From Desulfobacteraceae bacterium UBA2156 (GTDB lineage Bacteria > Desulfobacterota > Desulfobacteria > Desulfobacterales > UBA2156): a stretch of DNA of 64,000 nt. Positions 2,975-20,911 of this stretch are shown here, piece by piece. The notes below the pieces were generated by a model. That model made no database searches, was not told the origin of the DNA, and was given only the letters and a program-made list of their open reading frames with translations. Each line of letters starts with the position of its first letter. The first letter of the stretch is position 1. The DNA lies in assembly GCA_002328165.1 (NCBI GenBank), contig DCWS01000077.1, positions 1,624 to 65,623 on the forward strand. Reading direction: 5' to 3'. The translations under genes and the position numbers were made by a program.

Positions 2975-3301
2975 GTGTTGAGCATGCGGATAGACGATCA
3001 TCCCATATTGGGAACGTTTGAAAAAGGCCAGAAGGTTTCCTTCGTATTTGATGATAAAGCGATGGAAGGTTTTGAAGGGGAGCCGATTGCCGTTGCCCTC
3101 CGAAGCAACGGTGTGAAGATCCATCGTTACACGATGAGGAGAAATCAGCCCCGGGGCATTTTCTGTGCCATCGGACGTTGCACAGATTGTATCATGGTCG
3201 TCGACGGCACGCCGAATGTGCGAACCTGTGTGGAGCCGTTGCAGAAAGGGTCGGTGATCCAGACTCAAGTTGGCGCCGGTCCGGAAGTCACGAGGAAGTA
3301 A
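2975..3301 (+). CDS. Small [2Fe-2S] subunit (HcnA / opine-oxidase / sarcosine-oxidase-alpha N-terminal type)
   Basis: 108 aa. GEPIAVAL..NG and CAIGRCTDCIMVVDGTPNVRTC are characteristic of the 2Fe-2S domain that partners HcnB/OoxA-type flavoproteins. The start could also be ATG 2984. Confidence 0.7.
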   Translation: MLSMRIDDHPILGTFEKGQKVSFVFDDKAMEGFEGEPIAVALRSNGVKIHRYTMRRNQPRGIFCAIGRCTDCIMVVDGTPNVRTCVEPLQKGSVIQTQVGAGPEVTRK

Positions 3302-3304
3302 ATC

Positions 3305-4393
3305 GTGCGCAGATGTGAAATGATAAGTGTCGGAGCCGGTCCTGCGGGTTTGGCCGCTGCCACCGAAGCTGCCAGAAACGGTGTTGAAGTTTTAGTTTTT
3401 GACGAAAATGACCGGCCCGGTGGACAGCTTTTTAAACAGATTCATAAATTCTTTGGGTCAGAAGAACATCATGCCAAGGAGCGGGGTTTTGATATCGGAT
3501 ACGGTTTTCTAGAGGAGGCTGAGAAGCTGGGGGTCGAAGTCTCTTTGAGCTCTGTGGTCATGGGAATCTATGAGAACCGGACGATGAATGTCCTGATCAG
3601 AGATCGGATTGAGCAGGTAAGGGCGGAAAAGATTTTGGTTGCCACCGGTGCGTCAGAAAACATGATTCCATTTCCAGGCTGGACTCTGCCGGGCATAATC
3701 GGCGCTGGAGCGGCCCAGACCATTGCCAACATTCATGGAATAAAACCGGGCGAGAATCTGCTTATGGTCGGGTCGGGGAATGTCGGGCTCGTGGTGGCTT
3801 ATCAGATGCTTCAAGCGGGTTGTCAGGTTTCAGCCATCATAGACGCTGCTCCCCGCATCGGTGGATACGAGGTTCATGCGGCCAAGGTGGCTCGATATGG
3901 TGTCCCGTTTTTCATGTCCCATACCATCACGGAGGCGGGCGGAGAAAAATGGATTGAAAGTGCGACGATCAGCCAGGTCGATAAAGAATGGAAGCCGATT
4001 CCAGGGACCGAAAAAAAATTTGAACTCGATACGGTCTGTATTGCAGTGGGTCTCAACCCAATGACGCAGCTCCTGGATATGTTAAGCTGCAAAATGGTAC
4101 CTGTCCCGTCTCTGGGCGGAAGGGTTCCTGCGCATGACCTGGGCCAGGAAACGTCTATTCCGGGTATTTATGTAGCCGGCGATTCGTCCGGTATTGAGGA
4201 GGCCAGCACAGCCATCATCGAGGGCCGGATTGCGGGATTGGCGATTGCGCACAGCTTGGGATATATAGATGACTCGTCCTTTCTGGAACAACGTGATCGG
4301 CAATTCAAAAGCATGGTGGGGCTGCGGAGCGGTTCCCACGGAGAGGCGCGGAAAATAGCAAAAGAATATATAAATGCAGTGATGAAAGGATAG
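3305..4393 (+). CDS. FAD/NAD(P)-binding pyridine-nucleotide-disulfide oxidoreductase subunit (HcnB/OoxA/LhpF-like alpha subunit)
   Basis: 362 aa. Two Rossmann motifs (VGAGPAGLAAA..E and MVGSGNVGLVVA) and a C-terminal GIYVAGD FAD motif. Confidence 0.75.
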   Translation: MRRCEMISVGAGPAGLAAATEAARNGVEVLVFDENDRPGGQLFKQIHKFFGSEEHHAKERGFDIGYGFLEEAEKLGVEVSLSSVVMGIYENRTMNVLIRDRIEQVRAEKILVATGASENMIPFPGWTLPGIIGAGAAQTIANIHGIKPGENLLMVGSGNVGLVVAYQMLQAGCQVSAIIDAAPRIGGYEVHAAKVARYGVPFFMSHTITEAGGEKWIESATISQVDKEWKPIPGTEKKFELDTVCIAVGLNPMTQLLDMLSCKMVPVPSLGGRVPAHDLGQETSIPGIYVAGDSSGIEEASTAIIEGRIAGLAIAHSLGYIDDSSFLEQRDRQFKSMVGLRSGSHGEARKIAKEYINAVMKG

Positions 4394-4397
4394 TTTC

Positions 4398-4901
4398 ATG
4401 TCCAAGGGGATGTCAGAAACAGGATATCTCTCAGATGAAGAGCTGGATAACGGTCCTGGTATCCCTTCCGAGGGGAGACGGCGTAGAGGCCCGGTGGCGG
4501 TGCTTGAATGCATTCAGGATATCCCCTGTAACCCCTGCGAAGCGAGTTGTCCGGAAGGTGCTATCCAGGTGGGTGAGGACATCACCAATCTTCCCCATCT
4601 GTTGGAAGAGAAATGTATCGGATGTCAATCCTGCTTACCCGTTTGCCCTGGACAGGCTATTTTTTTAGTCGATGAAAGTTCGACGGAAGACGTTTCCAGG
4701 GTAACAATGCCATACGAATTTTTGCCATTACCGGAAAAGGAAGAGACTGTCATCGCATTGGATCGTGCCGGGCAGGAATTGGGCGATACAACGGTCATAA
4801 GAGTTCGGAAAACAGATAAAATGGACCATACTGCTTTGGTCACCATTGAGGTGCCGAAAGAATGGTCCATGAGAACCAGAGCGTTTAAATTAAAACGATA
4901 A
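4398..4901 (+). CDS. Ferredoxin-domain protein (2x[4Fe-4S]-type motifs) with extra C-terminal domain
   Basis: 167 aa. CNPCEASCPEGAI and CIGCQSCLPVCPGQAI motifs. Lies directly between the flavoprotein gene and the first shell gene. Confidence 0.7.
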   Translation: MSKGMSETGYLSDEELDNGPGIPSEGRRRRGPVAVLECIQDIPCNPCEASCPEGAIQVGEDITNLPHLLEEKCIGCQSCLPVCPGQAIFLVDESSTEDVSRVTMPYEFLPLPEKEETVIALDRAGQELGDTTVIRVRKTDKMDHTALVTIEVPKEWSMRTRAFKLKR

Positions 4902-4924
4902 CTCAAACCAGGAGGAAATGAAAA

Positions 4925-5206
4925 ATGAACGAACAAGCGCTGGGTATGGTAGAGACCCGAGGACTGGTAGGTGCCATTGAGGCTGCCGATGCCATGGTCA
5001 AAGCCGCAAAAGTGAGATTTGTGGGAAGGGAATTTGTAGGTGGCGGTCTTGTGACGGTTTTCGTCCGCGGGGATGTTGGTGCGGTTAAAGCGGCAACAGA
5101 TGCCGGCGGTGCGGCGGCCGGAAGGGTGGGCGAACTCATCTCAGTACATGTCATCCCAAGGCCTCACGGAGACGTTGAGTTTACTATTCCCAAGGCGGAA
5201 GAATAA
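4925..5206 (+). CDS. BMC-H shell protein (PduA/EutM-type hexamer)
   Basis: 93 aa. [24 protein letters not shown]...[11 protein letters not shown]...VHVIPRP is a canonical single BMC domain. Good RBS (aggagga) upstream. Confidence 0.9.
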
Positions 5207-5334
5207 CCGTTTCACATTGTGTTGAACCGAAACAGCGAGTGCATTCCCCGCAGCTTGTCGAAGTGCAGCGTAGATTTATTCGCCTATGGAGTATCCTTAC
5301 ATTTAAGGTTGCGGAGTTCTTCAATCTTGATTTT

Positions 5335-5355
5335 GAGAGGGGTTCCTCTCTTTTT
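5335..5355 (+). terminator. Hairpin plus T-run inside the BMC operon (possible partial terminator/attenuator after the first BMC-H gene)
   Basis: gagagg-ggtt-cctctc followed by ttttt, within the unusually long 190-bp gap between 5206 and 5398. Confidence 0.4.
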
Positions 5356-5397
5356 CAGGGAAGATTTGCGTTCGGTATTTTGTGAATTCTCAGAGAT

Positions 5398-5700
5398 ATG
5401 GCTCTAAACATTCAGTTTATAACCCACCCCGGACCCGGTGTCATCAGCATCTTGATGACCCGGATGAGCACATCCGGTCGAAAAACGGTTGAAATGATCG
5501 ATTTGAGCGCCGTTGGGCTCGTCCAGGGTCGTTTGATAGATATGATCTACGCGTCTGATATCGCAGAGAAGTCTGCAAACGTTCAGGTTTTTGATCTCAA
5601 AGGAACCTGTCCGCAACATCTGACGATGATCGGTATTTTTGGCGAGATTGCGGCTGTGAAAGCCGCGCTGGATGCCATATCCGCTGAGGAGGGATTGTAG
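5398..5700 (+). CDS. Circularly permuted single-domain BMC shell protein (EutS/PduU-like)
   Basis: 100 aa. AVGLVQGRLIDMIYASDIAEKSANVQV...GEIAAVKAALDAI aligns by eye to the permuted PduU/EutS order. Confidence 0.65.
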   Translation: MALNIQFITHPGPGVISILMTRMSTSGRKTVEMIDLSAVGLVQGRLIDMIYASDIAEKSANVQVFDLKGTCPQHLTMIGIFGEIAAVKAALDAISAEEGL

Positions 5701-5762
5701 CAGTGGATTTCATCGATTTGGTGTAATCCGATCATTGTAAACAAGCGTAAAGGTAGTTGGGT

Positions 5763-6053
5763 ATGATACTCGGTAAAATTGTCGGAGATGTCTGGTCGAC
5801 CAAAAAGAATGACAAAATCCATGCGTTAAGACTTCTCTTTGTCCAGCCCCTGGGGAAGGATTTAACCCCGTGCGGAGAAATGCTGATTGCTGCAGATGAG
5901 ATTGGGGCAGGGATGGGGGAGATGGTAATTGTCACTCAAGGCGCACCGGCCATGCAGGCATTTAACAAAGATTCGTTGATTCCTGTGGATGCCGTGGTGG
6001 TCGGTATTGTCGATAACCTTGAAATACCGGAAAAGCCAGACGCCGACGGATAA
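5763..6053 (+). CDS. BMC-P vertex pentamer (EutN/CcmL family)
   Basis: MILGKIVGDVWSTKK...LLFVQP...IAADEIGAGMGEMVIV..G...VDAVVVGIVD is a typical EutN/CcmL pattern. ATG 5763 is preferred over the TTG at 5757. Confidence 0.85.
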   Translation: MILGKIVGDVWSTKKNDKIHALRLLFVQPLGKDLTPCGEMLIAADEIGAGMGEMVIVTQGAPAMQAFNKDSLIPVDAVVVGIVDNLEIPEKPDADG

Positions 6054-7391
6054 ATGATAAAACAGGAGATTGTAGAAAAAGTCAGGGCCGCAGGCGTCGT
6101 AGGGGCAGGTGGCGCCGGTTTTCCCACCCACGTCAAACTCGAAGCGGATGTTGAAAGGGTGCTCGGGAACGGGGCATCCTGCGAACCGCTTCTGATGAGC
6201 GACCTTTTTTTGGTGGAGAACGAGTCAGAAGATATTCTCAGCGGCCTTTCCATGGTGATGCAGAGCACTGGGGCCGGACGTGGAACCCTCTGTCTCAAAG
6301 AGAAACATTTCGAAGCCTTTGGCACACTGGAAAAAATGATCTCAAAGCACAAAATAAAAGATATCGATATTTTTAGACTGGGTGATTTTTATCCGGCAGG
6401 CGACGAAATGGTTTTGGTCTATGAAGTAATGAATCGGGTGGTGCCTGAGGGTGGCTTCCCGCTACAGGTGGGGGTTGTGGTAAATAATGTTGAATCTCTT
6501 CTCAACATTGCCCGGGCTGTAAAAACCGATAAACCCGTTACCGAGAGATATCTGACCGTTGCCGGGGAGGTGCAAAAAAACTTGGTTGTGAAAGTGCCGG
6601 TCGGTATTTCTGTGGGTGAAGTCATAAACCTTGCCGGCGGTGCAACCATTAGTGATTTTAAAGTTATTGTCGGGGGACCGATGATGGGGCAGGTTGTCAC
6701 CGATCTTTCCACGTCGGTGGACAAGACCACAAGTGGAGTAATTGTTCTACCCATCAATCATAATGTCATTGCCGGCAAAACAGATGATCCGGAAAGAATC
6801 AGACAGATTACCCGTTTGTTTTGTTGCCAGTGTTCGCGGTGCACGGATCTGTGCCCAAGGACACTGCTGGGTCATTCCCTTGAATCCCATAAAATTATGC
6901 GGCAACTAGGGGTCGGGTCCCAGCTGGTCTCCGAGGCGTTGTTAGAGGATGCGCTCATCTGTTCAGAATGCGGCATATGTGAAAAGTTTGCATGTCCGAT
7001 GATGATTTCTCCACGGGAGGTCAATGCACAGATCAAGAGAGAAATGATGGAAAAAGGTGTCGACAGATCTCCCAAAAAGATCGACTATCAACCCTCGGCT
7101 TTCAGAGATGTTCGTAAGATCCCAACCAAAAGGCTTATGGAACGTTTGCAGGTGAGCCGGTACGACCAACACCCTGAAATTTTTACAGGGAAAATAGAGG
7201 TAAAAAAAGCAACGATTCCGTTAAAGCAGCACATTGGAGCACCGGCAATACCTGTGGTTAAAACCGGAGACCGTGTCGATAAGGGAGATCTCGTCGGGGA
7301 GATTCCGAATAAGACATTGGGTGCCAGGGTCCACGCCAGCATCTCCGGTGTGGTGGAATCCGTGGGAACGGACGTTGTAATCCGACAATAA
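6054..7391 (+). CDS. PduS/RnfC-like Fe-S flavoprotein (NADH-binding SLBB-type, two 4Fe-4S motifs)
   Basis: 445 aa. N-terminal GVVGAGGAGFPTHVKL, then CCQCSRCTDLCP and CSECGICEKFACP cluster motifs. Located inside the shell gene block. Confidence 0.8.
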   Translation: MIKQEIVEKVRAAGVVGAGGAGFPTHVKLEADVERVLGNGASCEPLLMSDLFLVENESEDILSGLSMVMQSTGAGRGTLCLKEKHFEAFGTLEKMISKHKIKDIDIFRLGDFYPAGDEMVLVYEVMNRVVPEGGFPLQVGVVVNNVESLLNIARAVKTDKPVTERYLTVAGEVQKNLVVKVPVGISVGEVINLAGGATISDFKVIVGGPMMGQVVTDLSTSVDKTTSGVIVLPINHNVIAGKTDDPERIRQITRLFCCQCSRCTDLCPRTLLGHSLESHKIMRQLGVGSQLVSEALLEDALICSECGICEKFACPMMISPREVNAQIKREMMEKGVDRSPKKIDYQPSAFRDVRKIPTKRLMERLQVSRYDQHPEIFTGKIEVKKATIPLKQHIGAPAIPVVKTGDRVDKGDLVGEIPNKTLGARVHASISGVVESVGTDVVIRQ

Positions 7392-7469
7392 AAGGTGGAA
7401 CCTTTGAAAAACATCGCTTTTTGCCCAAAATAAAAATCAGCATTTTTCAAAGATCTCTAGGTGTAACGA

Positions 7470-8021
7470 ATGGATTATAAGGCCATCGGGCTCATTGAAA
7501 CAAATAGTGTTGCCAAAGGAATTGAGTGCGCCGATGAAATGATCAAGGCAGCTGCCGTGGAGCTTTTGATGGCCCGCAGCGCATGTCCGGGCAGATATTT
7601 GGCGATGATCTCAGGTGATGTAGATTCAGTCGAAAATTCCGTCGATGTTGGAAGCGAAGTGGCCGGCGAGTTTCTTGTTGGAATATTTATCATTCCCAAT
7701 GTGCATTCAACGGTCTTTCCGGCTTTGGGCTGTGTCACCCCGATGCCTTCGATGAATGCCCTGGGTATCATCGAAACATTTTCCACTGTTTCTTGTATTG
7801 TTGCGGCCGATGCCGCGGCAAAAGCAGGGGATGTTGAACTGATTGAGATTCGCTGTGCCACAGGTCTGGCCGGGAAATCCTATGTCACACTGACCGGCGA
7901 CGTCGGATCGGTTAATGCTGCTGTTGATGCCGGTATCGCTGAAGTGGCGGAAGAAGGGATGATACAGAGCCATGTGGTTATCCCTTCCCCAAGCAAGGAG
8001 CTTTTTTCAAGACTGGCATAA
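7470..8021 (+). CDS. BMC-T tandem-domain shell protein, PduT-like with conserved pore cysteine
   Basis: 183 aa with two BMC domains (AIGLIETNS..., ALGIIETFS...). ARSACPGRYLAMISGDV aligns with the PduT segment TICPGKFLLMLGGDI that carries the [4Fe-4S]-ligating Cys. Confidence 0.8.
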   Translation: MDYKAIGLIETNSVAKGIECADEMIKAAAVELLMARSACPGRYLAMISGDVDSVENSVDVGSEVAGEFLVGIFIIPNVHSTVFPALGCVTPMPSMNALGIIETFSTVSCIVAADAAAKAGDVELIEIRCATGLAGKSYVTLTGDVGSVNAAVDAGIAEVAEEGMIQSHVVIPSPSKELFSRLA

Positions 8022-8872
8022 TGGAAACAATTGAAAAAATTGGCTGGATGCTAAATCAACCCGAACGGTGGGATTTTTCAGGAACGGAAAATCTGTACGC
8101 GGGTGTTGATCTTGGTACCTACAAAACCATCGTTATTGTGGTCGATGAGAAGGGAACGCCGCGTGCAGCAAACCTGCGTAAGGCTGAAGTGGTGCGGAGC
8201 GGGCTGATCGTCGATTATATAAGTGCCCTGGATATTGTCCGAGAGCTGATGGATGAGATCAGAAACTGCAGCCCCCAGAAGATAAATAAAGGAGCCACCT
8301 CATTTCCACCGCAAACCGAAACCGCCAATATCAACACTACAAAATATATACTCGAAAGTGTTGATCTAGAGGTCCTCAGGGTACTGGATGAACCGACAGC
8401 CGCAAGATTCGCACTCAATATGAGGGATGGGGCCATAGTCGATGTGGGTGGTGGCACAACCGGAGTGGCGGTCATAAGGGATGGTGAAGTCATTTATACC
8501 AATGACGAGGCGACCGGAGGAGAGCATCTGTCGCTGGTTTTGGCCGGACATCTGAATATCAGTTATGAGGAGGCCGATCAGATCAAGTTGAAAAAGGAAA
8601 ATACGCAACAGATACTTTCCATCGTTCAACCGGTCATCGATAAAATATCAAGCATTGTCGGGTCCTTTTTGAATAATTTTACCGGAATCGACACAATTTA
8701 TCTGGCAGGTGGAACATGCGAGCTTGATGGGCTAGCTGAAATTGTTTCTAAAAACCTAAACCTTGTGACCTTCCGGCCAAAGGCGCCGCAATTCATTACC
8801 CCTTTCGGCATTGCCCTTTCATGTCTTAAAACAAATGGACATGATGCTGAGGTAGGAAAATGGCCAATCTGA
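8021..8872 (+). CDS. EutJ-like actin/Hsp70-fold chaperone
   Basis: 283 aa. GVDLGTYKT, VLDEPTAA and IVDVGGGTTGVAV sugar-kinase/Hsp70 ATPase motifs. TAATG overlap with the BMC-T gene. Confidence 0.75.
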   Translation: METIEKIGWMLNQPERWDFSGTENLYAGVDLGTYKTIVIVVDEKGTPRAANLRKAEVVRSGLIVDYISALDIVRELMDEIRNCSPQKINKGATSFPPQTETANINTTKYILESVDLEVLRVLDEPTAARFALNMRDGAIVDVGGGTTGVAVIRDGEVIYTNDEATGGEHLSLVLAGHLNISYEEADQIKLKKENTQQILSIVQPVIDKISSIVGSFLNNFTGIDTIYLAGGTCELDGLAEIVSKNLNLVTFRPKAPQFITPFGIALSCLKTNGHDAEVGKWPI

Positions 8873-9663
8873 AAAAAGAAGAAATCAGACGATTTGTCCT
8901 TGATGTCTTAAAAGAGATGGGATCAACCGGAAAGAAGGAAACAAAATCGGTTTCAACGTATTCAAAGGGACCCTATGTATTCTGCATCTTCCACGCCGGT
9001 GTTCGTAAACTGGACACGGCGTTGAAACAGGTCCAACTGATTGGAGAACAGGCGGTTAAGTGTGGAATATACACGGGTGAGTCTGCTCGGGGTCGGGTTT
9101 GCGGGGGTGATGTCAGGGAGAAAGCAGGGACGCGCTGTATTCTTGATAATGTAAAGACAGACGGGTTGAATAAGGTTTTGGAAAGGGCGGATCTATTGGT
9201 ACTTCCCACCTTTTGTCTCAGGGTGGCTGCAAAAGTGGCCAATCTGATATGTGATGATCCTGAATCGAGTCTCGTTCTTTCTGCTCTGCTGCAGGGGAAA
9301 AGGATTTTGGCGACCCGAGACAGCTTCCTGGTCTGTGACATTCTGGTCAATGCGAGGCTAAAAAAAGAAATAGACAATATTTTGGAGAAACTGCAAAGTT
9401 TTGGAATGGTTTTCTGTGAAACCGGGCAGTTGAACGAGATGTTCCAGCAGTTGATCGTTGAACAGAAAAATACCGAGGGCGCTGAAGATAAAGCACCTCT
9501 AACGGAAGTGGCTGCTTCTACGGTAAAATTTATCAACGCAAAAGATGTTTACGCAGCTGTCGATCAAAAGAAGCATACCCTTGCGCTTTCTCCCGGCGGC
9601 ATTGTAACCCCCTTGGCGAAAGATCTGGCAAAGGAGTATTCAATCAAGATTGTTAAGACCTGA
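8860..9663 (+). CDS. BMC-associated protein with flavoprotein-like (CoaC/EpiD-fold-like) core, an N-terminal amphipathic helix and a C-terminal ~45-aa domain shared with the 10741 ORF
   Basis: 267 aa. ADLLVLPTFCLRVAAKVANLICDD...LLQGKRIL resembles the Flavoprotein family. The N-terminus EEIRRFVLDVLKEM is encapsulation-peptide-like. Function unknown. Confidence 0.45.
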   Translation: MANLKKEEIRRFVLDVLKEMGSTGKKETKSVSTYSKGPYVFCIFHAGVRKLDTALKQVQLIGEQAVKCGIYTGESARGRVCGGDVREKAGTRCILDNVKTDGLNKVLERADLLVLPTFCLRVAAKVANLICDDPESSLVLSALLQGKRILATRDSFLVCDILVNARLKKEIDNILEKLQSFGMVFCETGQLNEMFQQLIVEQKNTEGAEDKAPLTEVAASTVKFINAKDVYAAVDQKKHTLALSPGGIVTPLAKDLAKEYSIKIVKT

Positions 9664-9749
9664 TCAATCATGCGATCGGTATTTCCCATCAAAAAAGAAG
9701 CATTAGAAAAAAACCTTTGGTTAAAATTTCACATCAGGGAGACATATTT

Positions 9750-10367
9750 ATGGCTGAACTGAGGGCCTTTTGTCATTTGGATCGGATGCAACCACAGTTT
9801 GCATCTTTATTTGCGTCCCGCTGCCGCGGTTTCCTCTCCGTGGAGGGTATGGCCTCTTTATTTGTGGAGGTGGTCCCCGGCATTGAAATCAATCGCTTAA
9901 CTGATATTGCCCTAAAAATTACAGGTTCTCTCCCGGGTGAGATGATTGTTGAGCGTCGTTACGGGATGCTGGAAATCCATTCCTTTGAGCAGGAAGAAGT
10001 GCTTCACGCCGGTCAGATGATTTTGGATGAACTGGATTTAAAAGTAGAAAATCGACTGGCGCCGGCTATTTTAACAACCAGCGTAATCAACAAGGTTGAT
10101 CCGTATCAGGCGGTGATTATCAACCGCAACAGCAGTGGAATGCTCATTTTAGGGGGTGATGATGTTTACCTTCTAGAAGTTACACCGGCTGCCTATTCTT
10201 CCATCGCAGCCAACGAAGCGGAAAAACACTGCAATATACGACTGGTTGATATCCGGTTCTTTGGAGCTGCCGGGCGGGTCTACATGGCAGGAAGCGAATC
10301 CGAAATTCAGGCAGCGGCAAAAAAAGTGGTTGACACCTTAACCGGTCTTGAGGGGAGAAACCAATGA
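9750..10367 (+). CDS. BMC-T tandem permuted shell protein, CcmP/CsoS1D-like (double-stacking type), paralog 1
   Basis: MAELRAFCHLDRMQPQF...VEVVPGIEINRLTDIALK...VERRYGMLEIH...AANEAEK...FGAAGRVYMAG matches the remembered CcmP sequence pattern along its whole length. ATG 9750 with RBS agggaga. Confidence 0.7.
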   Translation: MAELRAFCHLDRMQPQFASLFASRCRGFLSVEGMASLFVEVVPGIEINRLTDIALKITGSLPGEMIVERRYGMLEIHSFEQEEVLHAGQMILDELDLKVENRLAPAILTTSVINKVDPYQAVIINRNSSGMLILGGDDVYLLEVTPAAYSSIAANEAEKHCNIRLVDIRFFGAAGRVYMAGSESEIQAAAKKVVDTLTGLEGRNQ

Positions 10368-10383
10368 TTGGAGGATTTAACCG

Positions 10384-10740
10384 ATGCAACAGGCTTTGGG
10401 ATTGATTGAAACAAGAGGGCTGGTGGCTGCCATTGAGGCTGCAGACGCGATGGTTAAAGCTGCCAACGTCAAACTGTTGGGCCGTCAGAAAGTCAAAGGC
10501 GGATTGGTATCTGTCATGATTTCCGGGGATGTGGGTGCTGTTAAAGCAGCTGTCGATGCAGGCTCGGCAGCATGCGGGAAGGTGGGTGAGCTTGTTTCTA
10601 TCCATGTCATCCCCAGGCCGAGAGACGATATTGAGCATATTATTCCTAAAGGACCGCCAGAGGAAAAGCCGGCGGATAAGAAAAAAACACCAGCTCGGAA
10701 GCGGAAACCAAAAAAACATCATAAAAGTCAGGGGAAGTAA
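10384..10740 (+). CDS. BMC-H shell protein with ~30-aa lysine/arginine-rich C-terminal tail
   Basis: 118 aa. Canonical BMC domain ([24 protein letters not shown]...[11 protein letters not shown]...IHVIPRP), then [28 protein letters not shown]. Confidence 0.9.
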
Positions 10741-11331
10741 GTGGCACCTGTTTTTATATTCATCGAAGATATCCAGAAGGCTCTAGATTCGGACAAAAAG
10801 GAAATCATGATCCCCCGGGAGACGAGAATTTCAGCGGCAGCCTTCGATCTGATTAAGGGCAATGACATCCGGATTCGTTTTGTTGGCGATCAAAAGGATG
10901 ATGCTTTAAAAGCGCCTGTCGATCCGACGCAGGAGACGCAGGCATCTCCTGCTGTTGGCCGGATATCAGATGGAGAACTGGAAAAAGTTGTCGACCTAGT
11001 TATCAGCCGAATCAAAGGGGCCAAGAGTCAAGAATCCTCTGAAACCGTGAAAAAAGAAAACGGACCTACGGATGACGACCTGGTGATTTGCCGGTGCGAG
11101 GAGATTACCAAGGGAGAGATCAAGGAAGTGATCAAAAATGGGATAAAGACCCCAAATGGTATCAAGCGTATTACCCGGGCGGGGATGGGGCTTTGTCAAG
11201 GACAGACATGCCAGCGGTTGGTGACGCAGATTCTGGCCACCGGGCTCGGTATCAATCCGACTGAGATTAAACCGACGACAGGACGGGCGCCGGTCAGACC
11301 GGTTTCTTTTTCGGCTTTTTCGACTGGATAA
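10741..11331 (+). CDS. BFD-like [2Fe-2S] protein with N-terminal ~45-aa domain and an internal amphipathic helix
   Basis: 196 aa. C-terminal ICRCEEITKGEI...GMGLCQGQTCQ is the Fer2_BFD motif found in HcnB/OoxA-type enzymes. The N-terminus aligns to the C-terminus of the 8860 ORF. GTG start directly after the preceding stop. Confidence 0.6.
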   Translation: MAPVFIFIEDIQKALDSDKKEIMIPRETRISAAAFDLIKGNDIRIRFVGDQKDDALKAPVDPTQETQASPAVGRISDGELEKVVDLVISRIKGAKSQESSETVKKENGPTDDDLVICRCEEITKGEIKEVIKNGIKTPNGIKRITRAGMGLCQGQTCQRLVTQILATGLGINPTEIKPTTGRAPVRPVSFSAFSTG

Positions 11332-11375
11332 TGCAAAAGATATTTCAACATTCCCCATAAACAACGGGAGAACAG

Positions 11376-12581
11376 ATGCCCAATAAAGCAGATGTGGTCA
11401 TTATCGGCGGTGGTGTTACGGGGAACGCCATTGCATATAACTTGGCCAAAGAAGGACTAAAACCAGTCGTTATCGAGAAGTCGGACATCGGAGGAGAAGC
11501 CTCCGGTAGCACTGGTGGCGGTGTCCGCCAGTCGGCTCGAAATCTGAAAGAGATGCCTATGGCCATGGAAAGCATTCGCTTATATGGCCAACTCCATGAA
11601 GAATTGGGCATGGATGTTGAGTATGTCAGGGAAGGGAACCTTCGATTATGTACCAGTGAAGAAGAATTAGAGACCATGCGCACCTCTGTTGAAAATCAGA
11701 AATCGGTCGGGCTCAATCTTGAGATGATAGACCGAAAACAGATTCTGAAAATCAACCCCTTTGTGGGCGAAAAAGTAATCGGTGCCGGCTACTGCCCCAC
11801 AGATGGCCATGTGAACCCCTTCCTAGTCACCTATGCTTTTTTTAAAAAAGCAAAAAGTCTTGGCGCATTGTACCACACCCATGAGGAAGTGACCGACATA
11901 AGACTGAGGAGGGGTAAAGTGGTTGCGGTCATTACCGATAAACAGGAGGTTGAAACTGATCTGGTGGTCAACGCCGCAGGGATAACCGGGCGAAAGGTCG
12001 CAAATATGGTTGGGATCGATCTGCCGATGCGGCCGGTTTTTACCGAGGCTTTGATAACCGAACCTTACCCACCTTTTTTTAAACAGATGATCGGACATGC
12101 CAAAGGACTTTTTTACGGCCGCCAAACGGTTCATGGCCCCTTTCTTTGGGGTGGCTTTGTTGGCACCGAAACGTTTATCCACCAGGGAGGCAAGCCACTC
12201 TTCCACTTTATCGGTCCCGCCATTTCCCGGATGGTGATTGACTTTTTTCCCATTCTTAAAGATTTCCATGTCATTCGCACATGGTCCGGACTCATCGCTC
12301 AGATGTCTGACGGAATACCGGTTCTTGGCCTGGTTGATGAAGTCCCCGGGTTTGTGTTTGCGACAGGATTCAGCGGGCACGGTTTTGGACTGGCTCCTGT
12401 AATCGGCCGGCTCATTTCAGAATTAATTATGGATTGCGAAGCTTCTATTCCGATAAATGACTTCTGTTATTCACGGTTTTACAGAGGCGGTGATCACGAA
12501 TGCGCTTGTAAAGGAAACGCGGCCTGTACAACAGTTACCGCCATCTGTCCCAACAAAAGGGAATGGCTGAAAAGTATATGA
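11376..12581 (+). CDS. FAD-dependent oxidoreductase, DAO family (SoxB/HcnC/OoxB/LhpB/proline-dehydrogenase beta-like catalytic subunit)
   Basis: 401 aa. DVVIIGGGVTGNAIAYNLAK dinucleotide fold, GYCPTDGHVNP, and the GFSGHGFGLAPVIG C-terminal motif typical of sarcosine-oxidase-beta-like enzymes. Cys-rich C-terminal tail. Confidence 0.8.
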   Translation: MPNKADVVIIGGGVTGNAIAYNLAKEGLKPVVIEKSDIGGEASGSTGGGVRQSARNLKEMPMAMESIRLYGQLHEELGMDVEYVREGNLRLCTSEEELETMRTSVENQKSVGLNLEMIDRKQILKINPFVGEKVIGAGYCPTDGHVNPFLVTYAFFKKAKSLGALYHTHEEVTDIRLRRGKVVAVITDKQEVETDLVVNAAGITGRKVANMVGIDLPMRPVFTEALITEPYPPFFKQMIGHAKGLFYGRQTVHGPFLWGGFVGTETFIHQGGKPLFHFIGPAISRMVIDFFPILKDFHVIRTWSGLIAQMSDGIPVLGLVDEVPGFVFATGFSGHGFGLAPVIGRLISELIMDCEASIPINDFCYSRFYRGGDHECACKGNAACTTVTAICPNKREWLKSI

Positions 12582-12595: not shown

Positions 12596-13207
12596 ATGGT
12601 CGAACTCAGGGCTTTTTCCTATATGGATGAATTGCAAAAACAGTTTGTCGGTTACATCAGCACAACTGCCCGTGGGTATTATCCGGTTGCCGGCCAGGCG
12701 GCATTATTTTTAGAAATTGCCCCTGGAATCGAGATCAATTCACTTACGGATGTACTCATGAAAAAAGCGAACGTTCGACCCGGTGCCATGGTCGTGGAAA
12801 GGATCTTTGGCATGTTGGAAGTGCATGCGGATTCCCCGGCGGACGTTCATATGGCAGGTGAAGTGGCATTGGATTACTTGGGACTAAAGGAAGGCGACAG
12901 GCTAAAACCAAAAATATTGGCGACCGAAACCATAGAAAGAATAGAGCCCTATATGAGTCAGATCGTCAACCGCTTTCGGGACGCCAGCATGGTTTTATCA
13001 GATGAAACTCTTTATATCTTAGAATGTGTTCCAGCCGGGTATGCTGGATATGCGGCCAATGAGGCTGAAAAAAAAGCCGATATCAAGTTGATCCACCTCA
13101 CTGTCTTTGGTGCCACCGGCCGGGTCTATTTGGCCGGAACCACCTCCAACATTCAAGCAGCGAAAGAGGTGGCAGAAAGTTCTTTATTGGCATTGGATGG
13201 CAGGTGA
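12596..13207 (+). CDS. BMC-T tandem permuted shell protein, CcmP/CsoS1D-like, paralog 2
   Basis: 203 aa. ELRAFSYMDELQKQF...LEIAPGIEINSLTD...VERIFGMLEVH...DRLKPKI...AANEAEKKA...FGATGRVYLAG. Clear paralog of 9750-10367. Confidence 0.7.
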   Translation: MVELRAFSYMDELQKQFVGYISTTARGYYPVAGQAALFLEIAPGIEINSLTDVLMKKANVRPGAMVVERIFGMLEVHADSPADVHMAGEVALDYLGLKEGDRLKPKILATETIERIEPYMSQIVNRFRDASMVLSDETLYILECVPAGYAGYAANEAEKKADIKLIHLTVFGATGRVYLAGTTSNIQAAKEVAESSLLALDGR

Positions 13208-13231: not shown

Positions 13232-14188
13232 TTGCTTATGAATTCAGCTAAAAAAGATTTATTTGATAAAATTGTCAGGGTCTACCCCAATCTTTCTCCC
13301 AAAAAGAAACGGGTAGCGGATTACATTATCAAAGATCATAAAAAGCTTTTTCTGATGACTGCCAGAGAGATTGCTCAGGAATGCCGGGTCAGTGAGCCAA
13401 CCATTATTCGGTTCACAAACGACCTCGGGTTTTCAGGATATCAGGGGTTTGTTCAGTACATGAAGGGACTCCTCCATATCGAATTGACGGCGGTTGAAAG
13501 ACTGATAAAGGCCAGCCAGCAGTCAGACCAAGCGGATACCCTCGACAAATATTGTCAAAATGCAATACGCAATCTTGAAAATTTACGAAGTTCGATCTCT
13601 AAAAAGGAGCTGAAAAGAGTTGCCAGGGTCATTCATAATGCTGAACAGGTATATGTTGTCGGGTATCGGGCATCGACCACATTGGCTTTTTATTTCGGTT
13701 ATCTCCTCGGTAAAATTCTCGAAAATGTCTTCCTGGATACATCCCTATCCTGGAAACTCATGGATAAAATCGCGCGAAATGGCAAATCAAGCGTTATGTT
13801 TGTTATCGCTTTCCCCAGATATCCGCTGAAAGTTATTCGCCTTCTGGAATATGCCAAAAGATATCGGGTAAAAATCATCGGTCTCAGCGATACACCAAAA
13901 TCCCCCATCATCGCGCTTTCTGATCAATATATTCTTATCGACCTTGAATCGGTGTCATTTATAGATCCTTTTGCCCATATAATTACATATCTTGGCGCCC
14001 TGATTCATGAAATTACTTTTTTAGATCAGCAGCAGGCCATGAAATATCTTTCCAGGTTTGACCATGCTGCAAAATCAGGGAAAGAATTCTTCACGGAAGA
14101 AAACGCTGATTTGGAAAAGAAGCAAAAATTCGATCATTCATATCTCACATCATTTTGGCCCGGTGATCACACACATCAACCGGGTTAG
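13232..14188 (+). CDS. RpiR/MurR-family transcriptional regulator (HTH + SIS domain)
   Basis: 318 aa. N-terminal LSPKKKRVADYIIKD...TAREIAQECRVSEPTIIRF HTH_6 pattern, followed by a SIS-like region (VYVVGYRAS...). Confidence 0.8.
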   Translation: MLMNSAKKDLFDKIVRVYPNLSPKKKRVADYIIKDHKKLFLMTAREIAQECRVSEPTIIRFTNDLGFSGYQGFVQYMKGLLHIELTAVERLIKASQQSDQADTLDKYCQNAIRNLENLRSSISKKELKRVARVIHNAEQVYVVGYRASTTLAFYFGYLLGKILENVFLDTSLSWKLMDKIARNGKSSVMFVIAFPRYPLKVIRLLEYAKRYRVKIIGLSDTPKSPIIALSDQYILIDLESVSFIDPFAHIITYLGALIHEITFLDQQQAMKYLSRFDHAAKSGKEFFTEENADLEKKQKFDHSYLTSFWPGDHTHQPG

Positions 14189-14218
14189 GAACAAGTGCTG
14201 AAACCCCGGGAGATCGGC

Positions 14219-15694
14219 ATGCGTCTTGATAAAGGACAAATCGAACAAATAGTTGAACAAGTCGTTAGATGTCTTCAGGCAGAAGGCCCCAAACGGTTGG
14301 ATTCTTTGAGAAACTCTACGGGATATAGCGGGATAGCAGATGGTGTCTTCCAGGACATGGAAGATTGTATCCAAGCCGCTTCCACCGCTCAAAAAAGACT
14401 GTTGGCTCTGCCGTTAACCGTTCGTCAGGAAATCATCCGAGCATTGCGCAGGGTTGGTATCTCCAATGCCGAAACGTATGCCCGACTGGAATTTGAAGAG
14501 ACGAGATTGGGCAAGCTTGAAGATAACGCGAAAAAAAATCTATCCGCATGCGAAGTCCCGGGCATGGAGGATCTTTCCCCTGAGGTCTATACCGGTGATA
14601 AAGGGGTAACCATAATTGAACGAATTCCTTTTGGTGTGATCGCTTCGATAAATCCAATAACCAACGGCTCACCGACGATCCTGCATAATGCTATCATGAT
14701 GTTATCTGGCGGCAACACAGTAGTGAATAACCCCCATCCCAAAACGTGGGGCGTGGCATCCAGGGTGATCAAGGATCTGAACAAAGCGGTCGTTGAGGCC
14801 GGTGGGCCACCGAACTCTATTTGCAGTCTTGAGGAACCATCGGTCGAGTCGGCCCAAAAGTTGATGACACATCCCGGTATAAGAATGATTGCGGTTACCG
14901 GCGGGCACGGGGTTGTGGCATTTGCCACCCAGACCGGAAAACGGGTTATTGCGGGCGGACCTGGGAATCCACCGGTGGTGGTCGATGAAACCGCTGACCT
15001 GAAACGGGCTGCAAAGTCTATCATCGAAGGAGCATCCTTCTCCAACTGTATTGCCTGCTCAAGTGAAAAAGAGATTTTTGTCGTTGAACCGGTGGCTGAC
15101 CGGCTGAAGGAACTGCTGAAGGATTACGGCGCCTTCGAGATCACAGCGGCACAGGGTGAAGAATTGATCAAACATATATTTACGGAAATCAAAGCACCCG
15201 GAGAACCGGGGCTCATCAACATGGATTTTATCGGCCGGTCACCCCGAACGATTTTAAAATCGATCGGTCTGGAAGTGGGTCCTGCCGTAAAGATAGCCAT
15301 TTTGGAAACCGATCGAAACCACCCCCTTGTTTGGACCGAACAGATCATGCCGGTTTTGCCGTTTATCCGTTGCCAGGATGCTGATGACGCCATAGGAGCA
15401 GCGATCGCCGCTGAACAGGGATACGGCCACACAATGGCCATTCATTCCAACAACCTGGAAAACATAAAAAAAATGGCCGGTATGGCCAAATGTGCCGCAT
15501 TTGTTAAAAATGGGTCCTGCGGTCTGGCAAGCGTTGGTGTTTCCGGAGAGGGGTATATCTCAATGCATATTGCGACCAACGGCGAAGGACAGACTCGACC
15601 AAGGACTTTTACCTTGATTAGACGCTGTGTCCTCTCAAACGATTTTCGATATCGTTTTGGGGCGGAGGTCCAGGGCCAATCGAAAACGGAATAG
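14219..15694 (+). CDS. CoA-acylating aldehyde dehydrogenase (PduP/EutE type) with N-terminal encapsulation-peptide-like helix, copy 1
   Basis: GGPGNPPVVVDETAD, catalytic-Cys region SFSNCIACSSEKE, and N-terminus MRLDKGQIEQIVEQVVRCL. ATG 14219 has a GGGAGA RBS and is preferred over GTG 14195. Confidence 0.85.
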   Translation: MRLDKGQIEQIVEQVVRCLQAEGPKRLDSLRNSTGYSGIADGVFQDMEDCIQAASTAQKRLLALPLTVRQEIIRALRRVGISNAETYARLEFEETRLGKLEDNAKKNLSACEVPGMEDLSPEVYTGDKGVTIIERIPFGVIASINPITNGSPTILHNAIMMLSGGNTVVNNPHPKTWGVASRVIKDLNKAVVEAGGPPNSICSLEEPSVESAQKLMTHPGIRMIAVTGGHGVVAFATQTGKRVIAGGPGNPPVVVDETADLKRAAKSIIEGASFSNCIACSSEKEIFVVEPVADRLKELLKDYGAFEITAAQGEELIKHIFTEIKAPGEPGLINMDFIGRSPRTILKSIGLEVGPAVKIAILETDRNHPLVWTEQIMPVLPFIRCQDADDAIGAAIAAEQGYGHTMAIHSNNLENIKKMAGMAKCAAFVKNGSCGLASVGVSGEGYISMHIATNGEGQTRPRTFTLIRRCVLSNDFRYRFGAEVQGQSKTE

Positions 15695-15704
15695 ATGGTA
15701 TGTT

Positions 15705-17141
15705 ATGGATATTGATGAAAAACAGATAGAACAGATCGTAGGGATGGTTCTGGAAAGATTATCTCCATCTGATCAGAAAATTTCTCCTGATCGATCTTTT
15801 GAAAAAGGAGATGGTGTTTTTAGAGAAATGGAGGATGCGATCCATGCGGCGGTGACTGCGCAAAAGCAATTGGTCGGTCTGCCCTTGGCCACACGTGAAA
15901 AAATTGTTCAGGGCATTCGAGATGTTTGCTGGAACAATCGTAAAGAATATGGTCGCATGGAGTTAGAGGAGACCGATATCGGAGCGAAGGAAGGAACTGT
16001 CCTGAAATTGGAAGTGGCGTGCGGTGTTCCGGGTCTTGAAGACTTGACGCCAGAGGTCTTTACGGGGGACCGGGGAATTACCGTTATAGAGAGCATCCCC
16101 GTCGGAGTCATTGCTTCTATCAACGCGGTGACTAATGCTGCGCCGAGCATCGTCAGTAACGCTATCCTGATGCTGGCTGGTGGCAACACTGTGGTCAACA
16201 ACCCCCACCCCAAAACCAAAGTTATTTCCGCCTGCGTGGTTCGTGATATCAATCAAGCCGTCGCCGATTGTGGCGGGCCGCCCAACTGTGTGAGCACCGT
16301 CGAAAACCCGGACATCCCCTCTGCGCAGCATCTGATGACCCACCCCCAGATCAATTTGATTGCGGTAACAGGCGGGCATCGGGTGGTTGAATTTGCCACT
16401 CAAACCGGCAAACGTGTCATCGCAGGCGGGCCTGGAAATCCACCGGTGGTGGTCGATGAAACCGCCGATTTAGATAATGCCGCCCAGTGTATTGTTCGGG
16501 GTGCTTCTTTGAGCAACTGTACCCCTTGTTCCAGTGAAAAAGAAATTTTTGTGGTAAAAACTGTTGCCAACCAATTAAAGGATCTCCTCAAGAAACACGG
16601 TGCATTCGAACTTACTGCTGAACAGGGCAGCGATCTGATTAAAGAGATATTCAAAGAAATTCGACCCGGCAGAGGCCCCAGTGTGATCAATATGGATTAT
16701 ATCGGCAAGCCCCCTCAGGTAATTTTGAAAAGGGCGATCGGACTGGAGATCCCGCCTGACACAAAAATTGCCATTTTGGAAACCGACAAGGAACACCCGC
16801 TCATTTGGACCGAGCAGATCATGCCGATTCTCCCGTTTGTCAGATGCCAGGATGCAGATGAAGCCATGGACATGGGGATTGCGGCTGAACAGGGGATGCG
16901 TCACACCATTGTTTTTCACTCCAATGATTTAAAAAACATCGCACGGATGGCGAGCATAGCCGATGCCTCTCAGTTTATCAAAAACGGGTCATCCATTGCA
17001 GGCCTCGGCGTTGAGGGAGAGGGATTCAAATCTCTGCACATCGCCACCGGCGGGGAAGGATTGACCCGGCCAAGGACATTCACGCTGGTCAGACGGTGTA
17101 TCCTCACCGATGATTTTCGATATCGGTTTGGGTCATTATGA
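15705..17141 (+). CDS. CoA-acylating aldehyde dehydrogenase (PduP/EutE type) with N-terminal encapsulation-peptide-like helix, copy 2
   Basis: Tandem paralog, roughly 60 percent identical by eye. GGPGNPPVVVDETAD, SLSNCTPCSSEKE, and N-terminus MDIDEKQIEQIVGMVLERL. ATG 15705 lies just after the copy-1 stop. Confidence 0.85.
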   Translation: MDIDEKQIEQIVGMVLERLSPSDQKISPDRSFEKGDGVFREMEDAIHAAVTAQKQLVGLPLATREKIVQGIRDVCWNNRKEYGRMELEETDIGAKEGTVLKLEVACGVPGLEDLTPEVFTGDRGITVIESIPVGVIASINAVTNAAPSIVSNAILMLAGGNTVVNNPHPKTKVISACVVRDINQAVADCGGPPNCVSTVENPDIPSAQHLMTHPQINLIAVTGGHRVVEFATQTGKRVIAGGPGNPPVVVDETADLDNAAQCIVRGASLSNCTPCSSEKEIFVVKTVANQLKDLLKKHGAFELTAEQGSDLIKEIFKEIRPGRGPSVINMDYIGKPPQVILKRAIGLEIPPDTKIAILETDKEHPLIWTEQIMPILPFVRCQDADEAMDMGIAAEQGMRHTIVFHSNDLKNIARMASIADASQFIKNGSSIAGLGVEGEGFKSLHIATGGEGLTRPRTFTLVRRCILTDDFRYRFGSL

Positions 17142-17586: not shown

Positions 17587-17650
17587 GAACTCAAGTTTCG
17601 CATCTGATATTTTGAGAAAAGCCGCATCAGGCGTATACCTTGGAAGGCCG

Positions 17651-20779: not shown

Positions 20780-20911
20780 TCTTCTTTTAAAAAGTCTTTT
20801 ATGAGCGGCATTGAGTCCCGCCAGCAGCGGGAGAAATAGCGGAATGAAATGCTGAATCTTAAAAATTGTAAATTGTTCGATCCATCCTCAAATGGTTTTT
20901 AGCGGAGGCCC

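Follow-up and report, generated by a model that had tools for sequence, protein, structure and literature searches.

Bacterial microcompartments (BMCs) of the MIC6 type were catalogued by Sutter et al. 2021 from three loci of anaerobic Deltaproteobacteria, and no function was assigned to them (PMC8217296, supplement). MIC is short for "metabolosome with incomplete core": these loci lack an obvious enzyme that generates an aldehyde (PMC8217296). For MIC6, the catalogue text lists a pfam04324 [2Fe-2S] protein and a pfam01266 oxidoreductase with a 30-aa C-terminal extension containing four cysteines, as well as a shell of two BMC-H, one BMC-P and two BMC-Tdp proteins and two shell proteins expected to bind iron-sulfur (Fe-S) clusters (PMC8217296). 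We observed all of these components in the window, by which we mean the whole stretch of 64,000 nucleotides analyzed here (Desulfobacteraceae bacterium UBA2156, assembly GCA_002328165.1, contig DCWS01000077.1, positions 1,624 to 65,623, forward strand), and the host belongs to the Desulfobacterales; the DAO protein shares 100% identity with one from a Desulfobacterales metagenome-assembled genome. The locus is thus the MIC6 microcompartment of Desulfobacterales. Five polypeptides encoded in two of its gene blocks (gamma, alpha, a ferredoxin-like subunit, delta and beta) very probably make up one Fe-S flavoprotein dehydrogenase. It is fairly likely that this enzyme is the signature enzyme of the MIC6 lumen and hence the candidate for the missing aldehyde producer.

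The family to which this predicted enzyme belongs is well supported by homology and comprises the archaeal dye-linked L-proline dehydrogenase (L-ProDH), D-hydroxyproline dehydrogenase (LhpBEF), opine dehydrogenase (OdhABC), HCN synthase (HcnABC) and, of heterotetrameric sarcosine oxidase, the alpha/beta core. Among the archaeal enzymes, Pyrococcus horikoshii PDH1 (alpha4beta4; structure 1Y56) contains the closest solved beta subunit and carries the gamma, alpha and delta modules in order on one alpha chain, while the L-ProDH of Thermococcus profundus has, like the enzyme described here, a separate 4-Cys delta and a separate [2Fe-2S] gamma subunit. Compared to these, the MIC6 enzyme adds a 2x[4Fe-4S] subunit, a delta extension of 110 aa and a cysteine tail on beta. 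It is bacterial and anaerobic, its genes fall into two blocks parted by shell genes and share an operon with a glutamine synthetase (GS)-like ligase and a GltB-like gene trio, and its substrate is probably not proline. HcnABC, LhpBEF and OdhABC/OoxAB/NoxAB follow the same logic of Fer2_4, Pyr_redox_2 and DAO modules, with the same cysteine and ADP-binding motifs. However, these enzymes carry the BFD/4-Cys domain on the Pyr_redox_2 subunit, and their genes lie side by side, neither of which holds for MIC6. They are also described as membrane-associated and from aerobes, and all of them lack a 4Fe-4S module and any connection with microcompartments.

Both the enzyme family and the microcompartment type are therefore already known. 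New here are the proposed five-subunit reconstruction, the likely identity of the enzyme as the signature enzyme of MIC6, the additions that go with the shell, and its connection with an uncharacterized but widespread operon of GS-like, GltB-like and RidA genes in anaerobes. The MIC6 catalogue text mentions neither the upstream Fer2_4, Pyr_redox_2 and Fer4 genes nor the GltB-like trio or GS-like ligase, all of which are seen here. In literature searches, no paper mentioning MIC6 turned up beyond the catalogue, and nothing relevant was found on microcompartments with N-methylglutamate or gamma-glutamyl pathways, or on this operon in anaerobes.

Subunits of the candidate dehydrogenase

The genes of the window were read from open reading frame (ORF) calls combined with Pfam and NCBIfam scans. 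They start with a single + strand array that runs from position 82 to ~22 kb with short intergenic gaps, and the part that bears on the enzyme is as follows.

82-981, + strand: class-II (Ntn) amidotransferase, MgsA/GlxB-like, 299 aa; Pfam GATase_6/7; starts MCGIAG, catalytic Cys1 retained
969-1673, + strand: GXGXG domain protein, MgsB/GlxC-like, 234 aa; Pfam PF01493
1670-2962, + strand: glutamate-synthase FMN-domain protein, MgsC/GlxD-like, 430 aa; Pfam Glu_synthase, E 9e-101
2975-3301, + strand: gamma-like subunit, Fer2_4 [2Fe-2S], 108 aa; Pfam Fer2_4, E 3e-26
3305-4393, + strand: alpha-like subunit, two-Rossmann FAD/NAD(P)-type flavoprotein, 362 aa; Pfam Pyr_redox_2, E 3e-33
4398-4901, + strand: ferredoxin-like subunit, eight-Cys 2x[4Fe-4S] with a conserved C-terminal domain, 167 aa; Pfam Fer4_7 and related families
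4925-10740, + strand: shell and accessory cassette, nine genes between the blocks, ~5.8 kb; Pfam, NCBIfam
10741-11331, + strand: delta-like subunit, BFD/4-Cys, 196 aa; Pfam Fer2_BFD/SO_alpha_A3 confined to residues 113-196
11376-12581, + strand: beta-like catalytic subunit, DAO-family FAD dehydrogenase, 401 aa; Pfam DAO, E 2e-71, residues 6-350

The initial annotation had proposed an enzyme split over block 1 (2975-4901) and block 2 (10741-12581), and every element of both blocks was recovered at those positions. Its central claim, that the five polypeptides form one enzyme of the HcnABC/OoxAB/LhpBEF or archaeal ProDH type, is supported by three lines of evidence: colinearity with 1Y56, fusions of three to five modules, and contiguous operons in Firmicutes.

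The gamma subunit corresponds to residues 10-99 of the NCBIfam soxA family and to residues 7-58 of 1Y56_A. Its cysteine motif, C-x4-C-x2-C-x12-C in FCAIGRCTDCIMVVDGTPNVRTC, is invariant across eight orthologues and fits the family pattern C-x4-C-x2-C-x11-12-C. For alpha, the best NCBIfam match is soxA 168-497 (138 bits), and in the PDB it matches 2GAG_A 130-445 and 1Y56_A 112-259. Alpha does not have the usual C-terminal 4-Cys domain and is 46-60% identical to fused relatives. The BFD domain of delta corresponds to 1Y56_A 410-487 and to soxA 521-596, and its four cysteines (Cys117, 119, 152 and 157, in the pattern C-x-C...C-x4-C) are invariant in 20 sequences (alignment A1). Gamma, alpha and delta thus occupy three consecutive stretches of the 1Y56_A chain without overlap. 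The catalytic subunit, which has the N-terminal GxGxxG of DAO-family proteins, points the same way: residues 1-372 of beta match 1Y56_B, the beta subunit of P. horikoshii L-proline dehydrogenase (E 4e-55), far better than glycine oxidase, dimethylglycine dehydrogenase or SoxB. An Arg-X-Trp motif in beta marks the flavin mononucleotide (FMN) held at the alpha/beta interface (PMC4575208). This motif is retained as R-T-W in the window (VIRTWSG, aligned to ILRTWAG of 1Y56_B), as R-[TM]-W in the orthologues, and in the Firmicute copies as well.

A glycerol-3-phosphate (GlpA-like) enzyme was also considered, from the best NCBIfam match of the BFD protein (GlpA C-terminus, 46 bits). It was rejected because beta fits ProDH, ThiO and SoxB far better and because the set of modules is SoxA/Hcn-like.

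The L-proline dehydrogenase of T. profundus is composed of alpha, beta, gamma and delta, of which delta is the separately encoded 4-Cys C-terminal domain (PMC4575208, S2 table), so a free-standing BFD-like subunit has a precedent. Stand-alone BFD proteins of 87-116 aa also occur in the closest bacterial relatives. The earlier statement that the BFD domain is normally fused to the flavin subunit consequently holds for the HcnB/OoxA type, but not for T. profundus delta or these bacterial relatives. Exchange of beta subunits is known within the heteromeric flavin dehydrogenase family (PMC4575208).

Next to these subunit matches, fused relatives connect the modules physically. We searched 1.8 billion cluster representatives with alpha (PyrRedox2) using HMMER and followed the hits with Pfam and BLASTP. 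One protein, P0280 (1185 aa), carries Fer2_4, Pyr_redox_2, 2x4Fe-4S, BFD and DAO on one chain in the gene order of the window. The five window proteins match it colinearly over residues 1-97, 129-433, 510-638, 627-761 and 796-1162, with identities of 46, 46, 37, 31 and 27% for gamma, alpha, ferredoxin, delta and beta. Five further proteins (P0250, P0249, P0260, P0331 and P0295) fuse PyrRedox2, Fer4x2 and BFD, and in P0301-type relatives (40% identity) the BFD/4-Cys domain is fused to Pyr_redox_2. These fusions place the 4Fe-4S protein, together with its C-terminal domain, as an integral module between the flavin and 4-Cys domains. An AlphaFold2 (AF2) model of P0280 is confident over residues 1-735 and has the entire 1Y56_A chain as its best PDB match (target-normalized template modeling score 0.81 over 761 columns), with the ferredoxin module appearing as an insertion.

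The same genes also occur side by side. In three shell-free operons of Firmicutes, L026, L028 (Desulfoscipio gibsoniae CP003273.1, 2937110-2956702) and L029 (Clostridium beijerinckii), the order is contiguous: GS-like, GATase, GXGXG, GluSyn, Fer2_4, PyrRedox2+Fer4, BFD, DAO and RidA. L026 was judged to be a spore-former from its genes for small acid-soluble spore proteins (SASP) and SpoVS. Its proteins are 42-72% identical to those of the window (amidotransferase 47%, GXGXG 48%, FMN subunit 72%, RidA 53%). Alpha and ferredoxin are fused in all three operons, and the stops and starts of the Firmicute gamma, alpha/ferredoxin, delta and beta genes overlap. More than 7,000 proteins match the fused alpha/ferredoxin subunit at E <= 1e-30. 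The fusion also occurs in Acetobacterium and Sporomusa species. In a distant relative, L025, the genes for Fer2_4, a [Pyr-Fer4-BFD] fusion and DAO are adjacent and adjoin a proline racemase gene.

Several observations weigh against a single five-subunit enzyme. P0280 is a single cluster found on two contigs, and its DAO part is just 27% identical to that of the window. The DAO part of its model is unusable (predicted local distance difference test scores of about 25-35) and uninformative on alpha/beta docking, which we attribute to misaligned DAO rows in alignment A2. In addition, L027 (5061-7257) has gamma, alpha/ferredoxin and delta without an adjoining DAO gene, so that the redox module may serve other catalytic partners. 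The neighbors of these L027 genes encode amidohydrolases and an M20 peptidase.

The L027 arrangement would also fit if block 1 were instead the electron-input module of the upstream trio, a functional equivalent of GltD, and block 2 an independent two-subunit dehydrogenase. Block 1 follows the gene of the trio's FMN subunit after a gap of 12 nt, this FMN subunit has a cysteine cluster of the glutamate-synthase type that implies an external redox partner, and alpha has a second Rossmann motif and weak matches to small subunits of glutamate synthase (GOGAT). These matches are however limited to 65 and 53 bits, with their best stretches in residues 8-50 around the first Rossmann motif only, whereas alpha matches soxA over its whole length at 138 bits. 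Such a block 1 had been named in the initial annotation as the alternative that could overturn the proposed enzyme, and this homology comparison speaks against it. Furthermore, GltD has an N-terminal 2x[4Fe-4S] domain ahead of its flavin domain, whereas alpha has no N-terminal Fe-S domain, and in its relatives the Fe-S module lies C-terminal to the flavin domain. In these relatives, alpha shares a chain with BFD and in one case also with DAO, and those chains carry no GltB-like domain. The contiguous Firmicute genes with overlapping stops and starts and the FMN-site motif retained in beta argue in the same direction, and we consider a GltD-like role for block 1 very unlikely.

Conservation of the split and shell-specific additions

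The cassette that separates the two blocks contains nine genes.

4925-5206, + strand: BMC-H
5398-5700, + strand: GrpU-like BMC-H
5757-6053, + strand: BMC-P
6054-7391, + strand: PduS-like
7470-8021, + strand: PduT-type BMC-T
8021-8872, + strand: EutJ-like
8860-9663, + strand: TIGR02536-like protein ('eut_hyp')
9717-10367, + strand: BMC-Tdp
10384-10740, + strand: BMC-H

We found the split order and the content of the shell cassette to be identical in nine independent loci (L001, L003, L004, L005, L007, L008, L021, L022 and L023). Their hosts are Desulfobacterales, Syntrophobacteraceae and other Thermodesulfobacteriota, and the DAO subunits of the first six of these loci are 75-98% identical. The same order in nine independent loci, together with the fusions, rejects a chance juxtaposition of the two blocks. 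Delta has more than 1,700 homologues, and every one of the best 120 is a full-length orthologue.

In MIC6 the cassette sits between the genes for ferredoxin and BFD, and the otherwise colinear Firmicute operons have no such cassette. The gamma/alpha/ferredoxin and delta/beta genes are thus parted by nine genes here, while the subunit genes are adjacent in L025, L026, L028 and L029. The contiguous form probably came first, with the shell cassette inserted later into the operon. The initial annotation saw in the split a possible way to place subunits on different sides of the shell or to tune their stoichiometry; the comparisons fit a simple insertion of the cassette without pointing to such a selective reason. 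Alpha and the ferredoxin module are encoded by separate genes in the MIC6 clade only.

The only sizeable intergenic gap between the two blocks is a 191-nt gap 3' of the first BMC-H gene. It contains a terminator-like hairpin at 5335-5350 (+ strand; GAGAGGGGTTCCTCTC followed by TTTTT). The hairpin could attenuate expression of the downstream genes, for which the evidence is weak because the scan gave 35 such sites against 22 expected.

The microcompartment-specific additions are confined to delta and beta. Delta has ~110 extra N-terminal residues relative to its Firmicute relatives, which consist of the BFD domain alone. Residues 1-48 form a small beta-alpha-beta-alpha-beta domain (alignment A1; AF2 model), followed by a variable disordered linker, an amphipathic helix at residues 74-96, a second linker and the BFD domain at 113-196. 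The helix is conserved (consensus ISEEELExIVNRVIxR) and resembles encapsulation peptides and the N-terminal helices of the aldehyde dehydrogenases of the locus. By profile-profile comparison (hhalign probability 93.9%, E 1.5e-7), the N-terminal domain shares homology with the last 44 residues of the TIGR02536-like protein, a relationship that BLASTP of the delta N-terminus against this protein did not reveal. A module of ~45 residues (..I[TS]P.A.DL.K...I.I) is common to the C-terminus of the TIGR02536-like protein (8860-9663) and the N-terminus of delta (10741-10884), and it may be a shared shell- or partner-binding module of microcompartment loci.

Beta ends in ...HECACKGNAACTTVTAICPNKREWLKSI, a tail of ~30 aa with the pattern C376-x-C378-x5-C384-x6-C391-PNKREWLKSI. 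The Cys-rich tail of the DAO subunit had already been pointed out in the initial annotation; it is indeed present (Cys376, 378, 384 and 391), but it is not new, as Sutter et al. 2021 had already reported it for MIC6 (PMC8217296). Of 11 orthologues, 10 share the conserved tail, while the one from L021 has three cysteines; the 373-aa Firmicute orthologues lack the tail and stop right after the DAO fold.

These additions to delta and beta would fit either of two arrangements alike. The whole complex may be encapsulated piggy-back, or the enzyme may be divided by the shell, with delta and beta in the lumen, gamma, alpha and ferredoxin in the cytosol, and electrons crossing from the FAD and cysteine tail of beta and the cluster of delta to the outside module via the PduT-type and GrpU-like Fe-S shell proteins and PduS. 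For a divided enzyme it counts that only block-2 proteins are extended relative to the Firmicute orthologues, that the four cysteines of the beta tail could hold an extra cluster, and that alpha and ferredoxin are unfused solely in the MIC6 clade. On the other hand, one orthologue (L021) has only three tail cysteines, and the delta module is an integral alpha domain in 1Y56 and in the fusions. In Pdu and Eut microcompartments, multi-subunit cargo usually carries a targeting peptide on one subunit only. The locus does encode PduS, a PduT-type BMC-T and a GrpU-like BMC-H, and two Fe-S shell proteins are expected for MIC6 (PMC8217296); however, the FMN of the family lies at the alpha/beta interface, and the R-x-W motif is kept in beta (PMC4575208). 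Since delta is integral to alpha in 1Y56 and the fusions and beta keeps the interface FMN motif, we favor piggy-back targeting of the whole complex and regard a shell-divided enzyme as improbable.

Pathway context and substrate

On longer contigs that contain the first gene of the window, a GS-family gene (445 aa; L018:8556-9893) lies immediately upstream of window position 1. GS-like genes are likewise positioned in L020, L022, L026, L028 and L029. The best NCBIfam family for the protein is TIGR03105 (type III GS), matched over the full length; it also matches gamma-glutamylputrescine synthetase (267 bits) and is not GlnA-type over its full length. The GS-like gene, the trio, the dehydrogenase and RidA are co-conserved as a tight operon across Desulfobacterales and Firmicutes, with RidA after the dehydrogenase genes in both and directly 3' of DAO in L026. 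The initial annotation had counted the upstream trio with an unrelated enzyme, which did not hold up: the trio is a constant part of the same conserved operon, and the ligase gene sits just outside the window.

This arrangement resembles the N-methylglutamate pathway, which consists of GmaS, MgsABC and MgdABCD, with MgsABC of about 300/225/442 aa (PMC6237917). In this pathway of methylotrophs, GmaS is a ligase of the type III GS family and MgdABCD a SoxBDAG-type dehydrogenase, in which the SoxA-like subunit bears the folate-binding GCV_T domain and SoxD- and SoxG-like subunits are present. The window trio, at 299/234/430 aa, has the same domains as MgsABC, and the MIC6 operon shows the same logic of a ligase, which may correspond to GmaS, a trio and a sarcosine-oxidase-related dehydrogenase. 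In two gammaproteobacterial loci found with the DAO query (L011 and L017), a homologous trio lies beside soxBDAG-like genes; L011 has a 974-aa SoxA-like gene and genes of 91 and 239 aa. The trio is 34, 25 and 47% identical to the L011 copies (amidotransferase, GXGXG and FMN subunit, respectively), and the amidotransferase N-terminus MCGIAG with Cys1 is conserved in all related operons.

MIC6 nevertheless differs from the N-methylglutamate pathway in several respects. It encodes a ProDH/Hcn-type dehydrogenase equipped with additional Fe-S modules, its hosts are anaerobic, and its GS-like protein falls below the family cut-off. The FMN subunit has a C-x2-C-x2-C-x4-C motif (residues about 333-345), like the 3Fe-4S site of true glutamate synthases, which is retained in the MIC6 and Firmicute copies, whereas the L011 copy has an insertion and two cysteines only. 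The retained cluster suggests electron exchange with a partner. Pfam scans of the genes between 1 and 28 kb of the window turned up neither a GCV_T domain nor a SoxD or SoxG domain. This would mean that the oxidized alkyl group is released as a free aldehyde, which in turn would explain the need for a shell and for aldehyde dehydrogenases. The genes that follow block 2 include both of the latter.

12596-13207, + strand: second BMC-Tdp shell protein; Pfam BMC, with CsoS1D_N in called genes of related loci
13232-14188, + strand: RpiR/SIS-family regulator; Pfam HTH_6 and SIS
14195-17141, + strand: two PduP/EutE-type CoA-acylating aldehyde dehydrogenases; Pfam Aldedh, NCBIfam PRK15398, 527 bits
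17110-17586, + strand: RidA-family imine/enamine hydrolase; Pfam Ribonuc_L-PSP
Between the RidA and TRAP genes, in the + strand array: old yellow enzyme (OYE)-like flavoprotein
19007-22213, + strand: TRAP transporter DctP/Q/M; Pfam

The aldehyde dehydrogenases have N-terminal helices (QIEQIVEQVV and QIEQIVGMVL) that resemble encapsulation peptides.

From these components we propose the following route. A primary amine would enter the cell through the TRAP system (MIC6 loci) or through APC permeases (Firmicutes) and would be gamma-glutamylated by the GS-like ligase. The trio would turn the gamma-glutamyl amine into an N-alkylglutamate, as in the N-methylglutamate pathway. The FAD of beta would then oxidize the alkyl C-N bond of an N-substituted amino acid, most probably this N-alkylglutamate, and the imine would be hydrolyzed with the help of RidA to glutamate and a free aldehyde, to be trapped as acyl-CoA by the encapsulated CoA-acylating aldehyde dehydrogenases. 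Electrons are predicted to pass from beta to the FMN and Fe-S centers of delta, gamma and the ferredoxin module and on to the FAD of alpha. The acceptor beyond alpha could be NAD(P)+ or the Fe-S/FMN subunit of the trio; alternatively, the electrons could cross the shell via PduS and the PduT-type and GrpU-like Fe-S shell proteins. Taken as a whole, one dehydrogenase within a route from amine via N-alkylglutamate to aldehyde is the best explanation of the gene content and a moderately probable one. The identity of the dehydrogenase substrate as N-alkylglutamate, considered by itself, is a tentative assignment.

The route has points against it as well. The GS-like protein scores 316 bits where the cut-off of TIGR03105 is 470. 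Since the FMN subunit keeps the Fe-S motif that is lost in the aerobic MgsC-like protein, the trio may act as a genuine, reductive glutamate synthase and not make N-alkylglutamate. Simple amine use does not typically come with a TRAP transporter and an RpiR/SIS regulator. In the Firmicute operons, no aldehyde dehydrogenase gene lies alongside, and the closest solved relative of beta is a proline dehydrogenase.

This last point would also fit a single enzyme acting on another substrate. Candidates are proline and hydroxyproline, glycine and sarcosine, opine-like N-carboxyalkyl amino acids and, as in the Puu pathway, a gamma-glutamylated diamine oxidized at its free amino end. In that case the only role of the GS-like ligase and the trio would be to re-assimilate nitrogen or to serve as an electron sink. 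The top-scoring NCBIfam family for beta is the glycine oxidase ThiO, the distant relative L025 adjoins a proline racemase gene, and RidA would suit the hydrolysis of 2-imino acids. The Puu pathway, which breaks down putrescine, shares with MIC6 a GS-like gamma-glutamyl ligase (PuuA; the GS-like protein here also matches gamma-glutamylputrescine synthetase, as stated above), a DAO-family amine oxidizer (PuuB) and an aldehyde dehydrogenase (PuuC), and in some loci a Peptidase_C26 (PuuD) and an APC permease. Its PuuB, however, is a single-subunit O2-dependent oxidase, and Puu has no GltB-like trio, Fe-S subunits or microcompartment. Genes for Peptidase_C26 (PuuD-like) and an APC permease accompany the operon in L023, L026 and L029, and a permease gene does so in L028. 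In L023 the class-I amidotransferase / Peptidase_C26 gene (PuuD-like gamma-glutamyl hydrolase; 17378-18106) comes right after RidA, which may be another hint at gamma-glutamylated intermediates. What argues against a different substrate is that the tight, co-conserved operon is hard to explain if two of its three enzymes were mere housekeeping, that Cys1 is retained in the amidotransferase and the GS-like protein is no GlnA-type enzyme over its full length, and that oxidation of proline or other amino acids offers no obvious source of substrate for CoA-acylating aldehyde dehydrogenases, with the exception of glycine to glyoxylate. We consider another substrate unlikely.

Returning to N-alkylglutamate as the proposed intermediate, the route could be extended to a closed loop. 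The ligase and a reductive trio would build N-alkylglutamate from the amine and 2-oxoglutarate, and the dehydrogenase would split it inside the shell, with its two electrons passing back to the trio by way of the alpha/ferredoxin module. The net reaction of such a loop would be an ATP-driven, pyridoxal phosphate-independent 'transamination' of amine and 2-oxoglutarate to aldehyde, without an external electron acceptor. That MIC6 serves anaerobic primary-amine catabolism in this way, with electrons cycled to the reductive Fe-S trio or exported through the Fe-S shell proteins, is a doubtful proposition at present.

Remaining genes of the window and implications

The RpiR/SIS regulator is found directly 3' of the shell genes in every related locus. 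The TRAP transporter at 19007-22213 is likely the substrate importer of the locus; TRAP genes are also present in L005, L008, L009, L021 and L022, and DctP is found where L006 and L023 end. The TRAP binding protein, the regulator, the OYE-like protein and a nitrilase-family protein had no match to a substrate-specific NCBIfam family and did not narrow down the substrate.

For the second aldehyde dehydrogenase ORF (15627-17141), alignments with orthologues start at residue 26 (MDIDEKQIEQIV..., with an ATG near 15702), and for the RidA ORF they start at about residue 20-25. Both ORF starts are probably over-extended in the calls, and with the later starts the apparent overlaps with the preceding genes vanish.

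Downstream of the TRAP genes, 23149-27973 encodes members of the nitrilase/amidase and reductive-dehalogenase families (the latter by TIGR02486, 214 bits, above cut-off) as well as a molybdopterin oxidoreductase. A molybdopterin oxidoreductase also follows the locus in L022, and an amidohydrolase does so in L021 and L022. These downstream genes may extend the pathway. Genes with a housekeeping character lie on the - strand at 31274-45083 and encode S-adenosylhomocysteine hydrolase, SAM synthetase, a multi-subunit antiporter cluster of the Mrp/Mbh type and a class A penicillin-binding protein. ClpB and a MiaB-like radical SAM enzyme are encoded further along the window.

In several catalogued microcompartment types, including MIC6, an aldehyde dehydrogenase is present without a known signature enzyme that would produce the aldehyde. 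Our analysis names a concrete candidate for MIC6, the five-subunit Fe-S flavoprotein dehydrogenase. If this is true, MIC6 would be a microcompartment with a flavin/Fe-S amine dehydrogenase core, and the Fe-S shell proteins and PduS would have a clear role in electron traffic across or within the shell. The comparison between the MIC6 and Firmicute operons pinpoints the residues that were added for life in a shell, namely the N-terminal domain and helix of delta and the cysteine tail of beta. These additions are testable as targeting or wiring elements and could serve engineering. The shell-free operon occurs in cultured anaerobic Firmicutes of several genera, two of which were checked directly (D. 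gibsoniae and C. beijerinckii). Such cultured, genetically accessible anaerobes make the biochemistry of the proposed route testable now.

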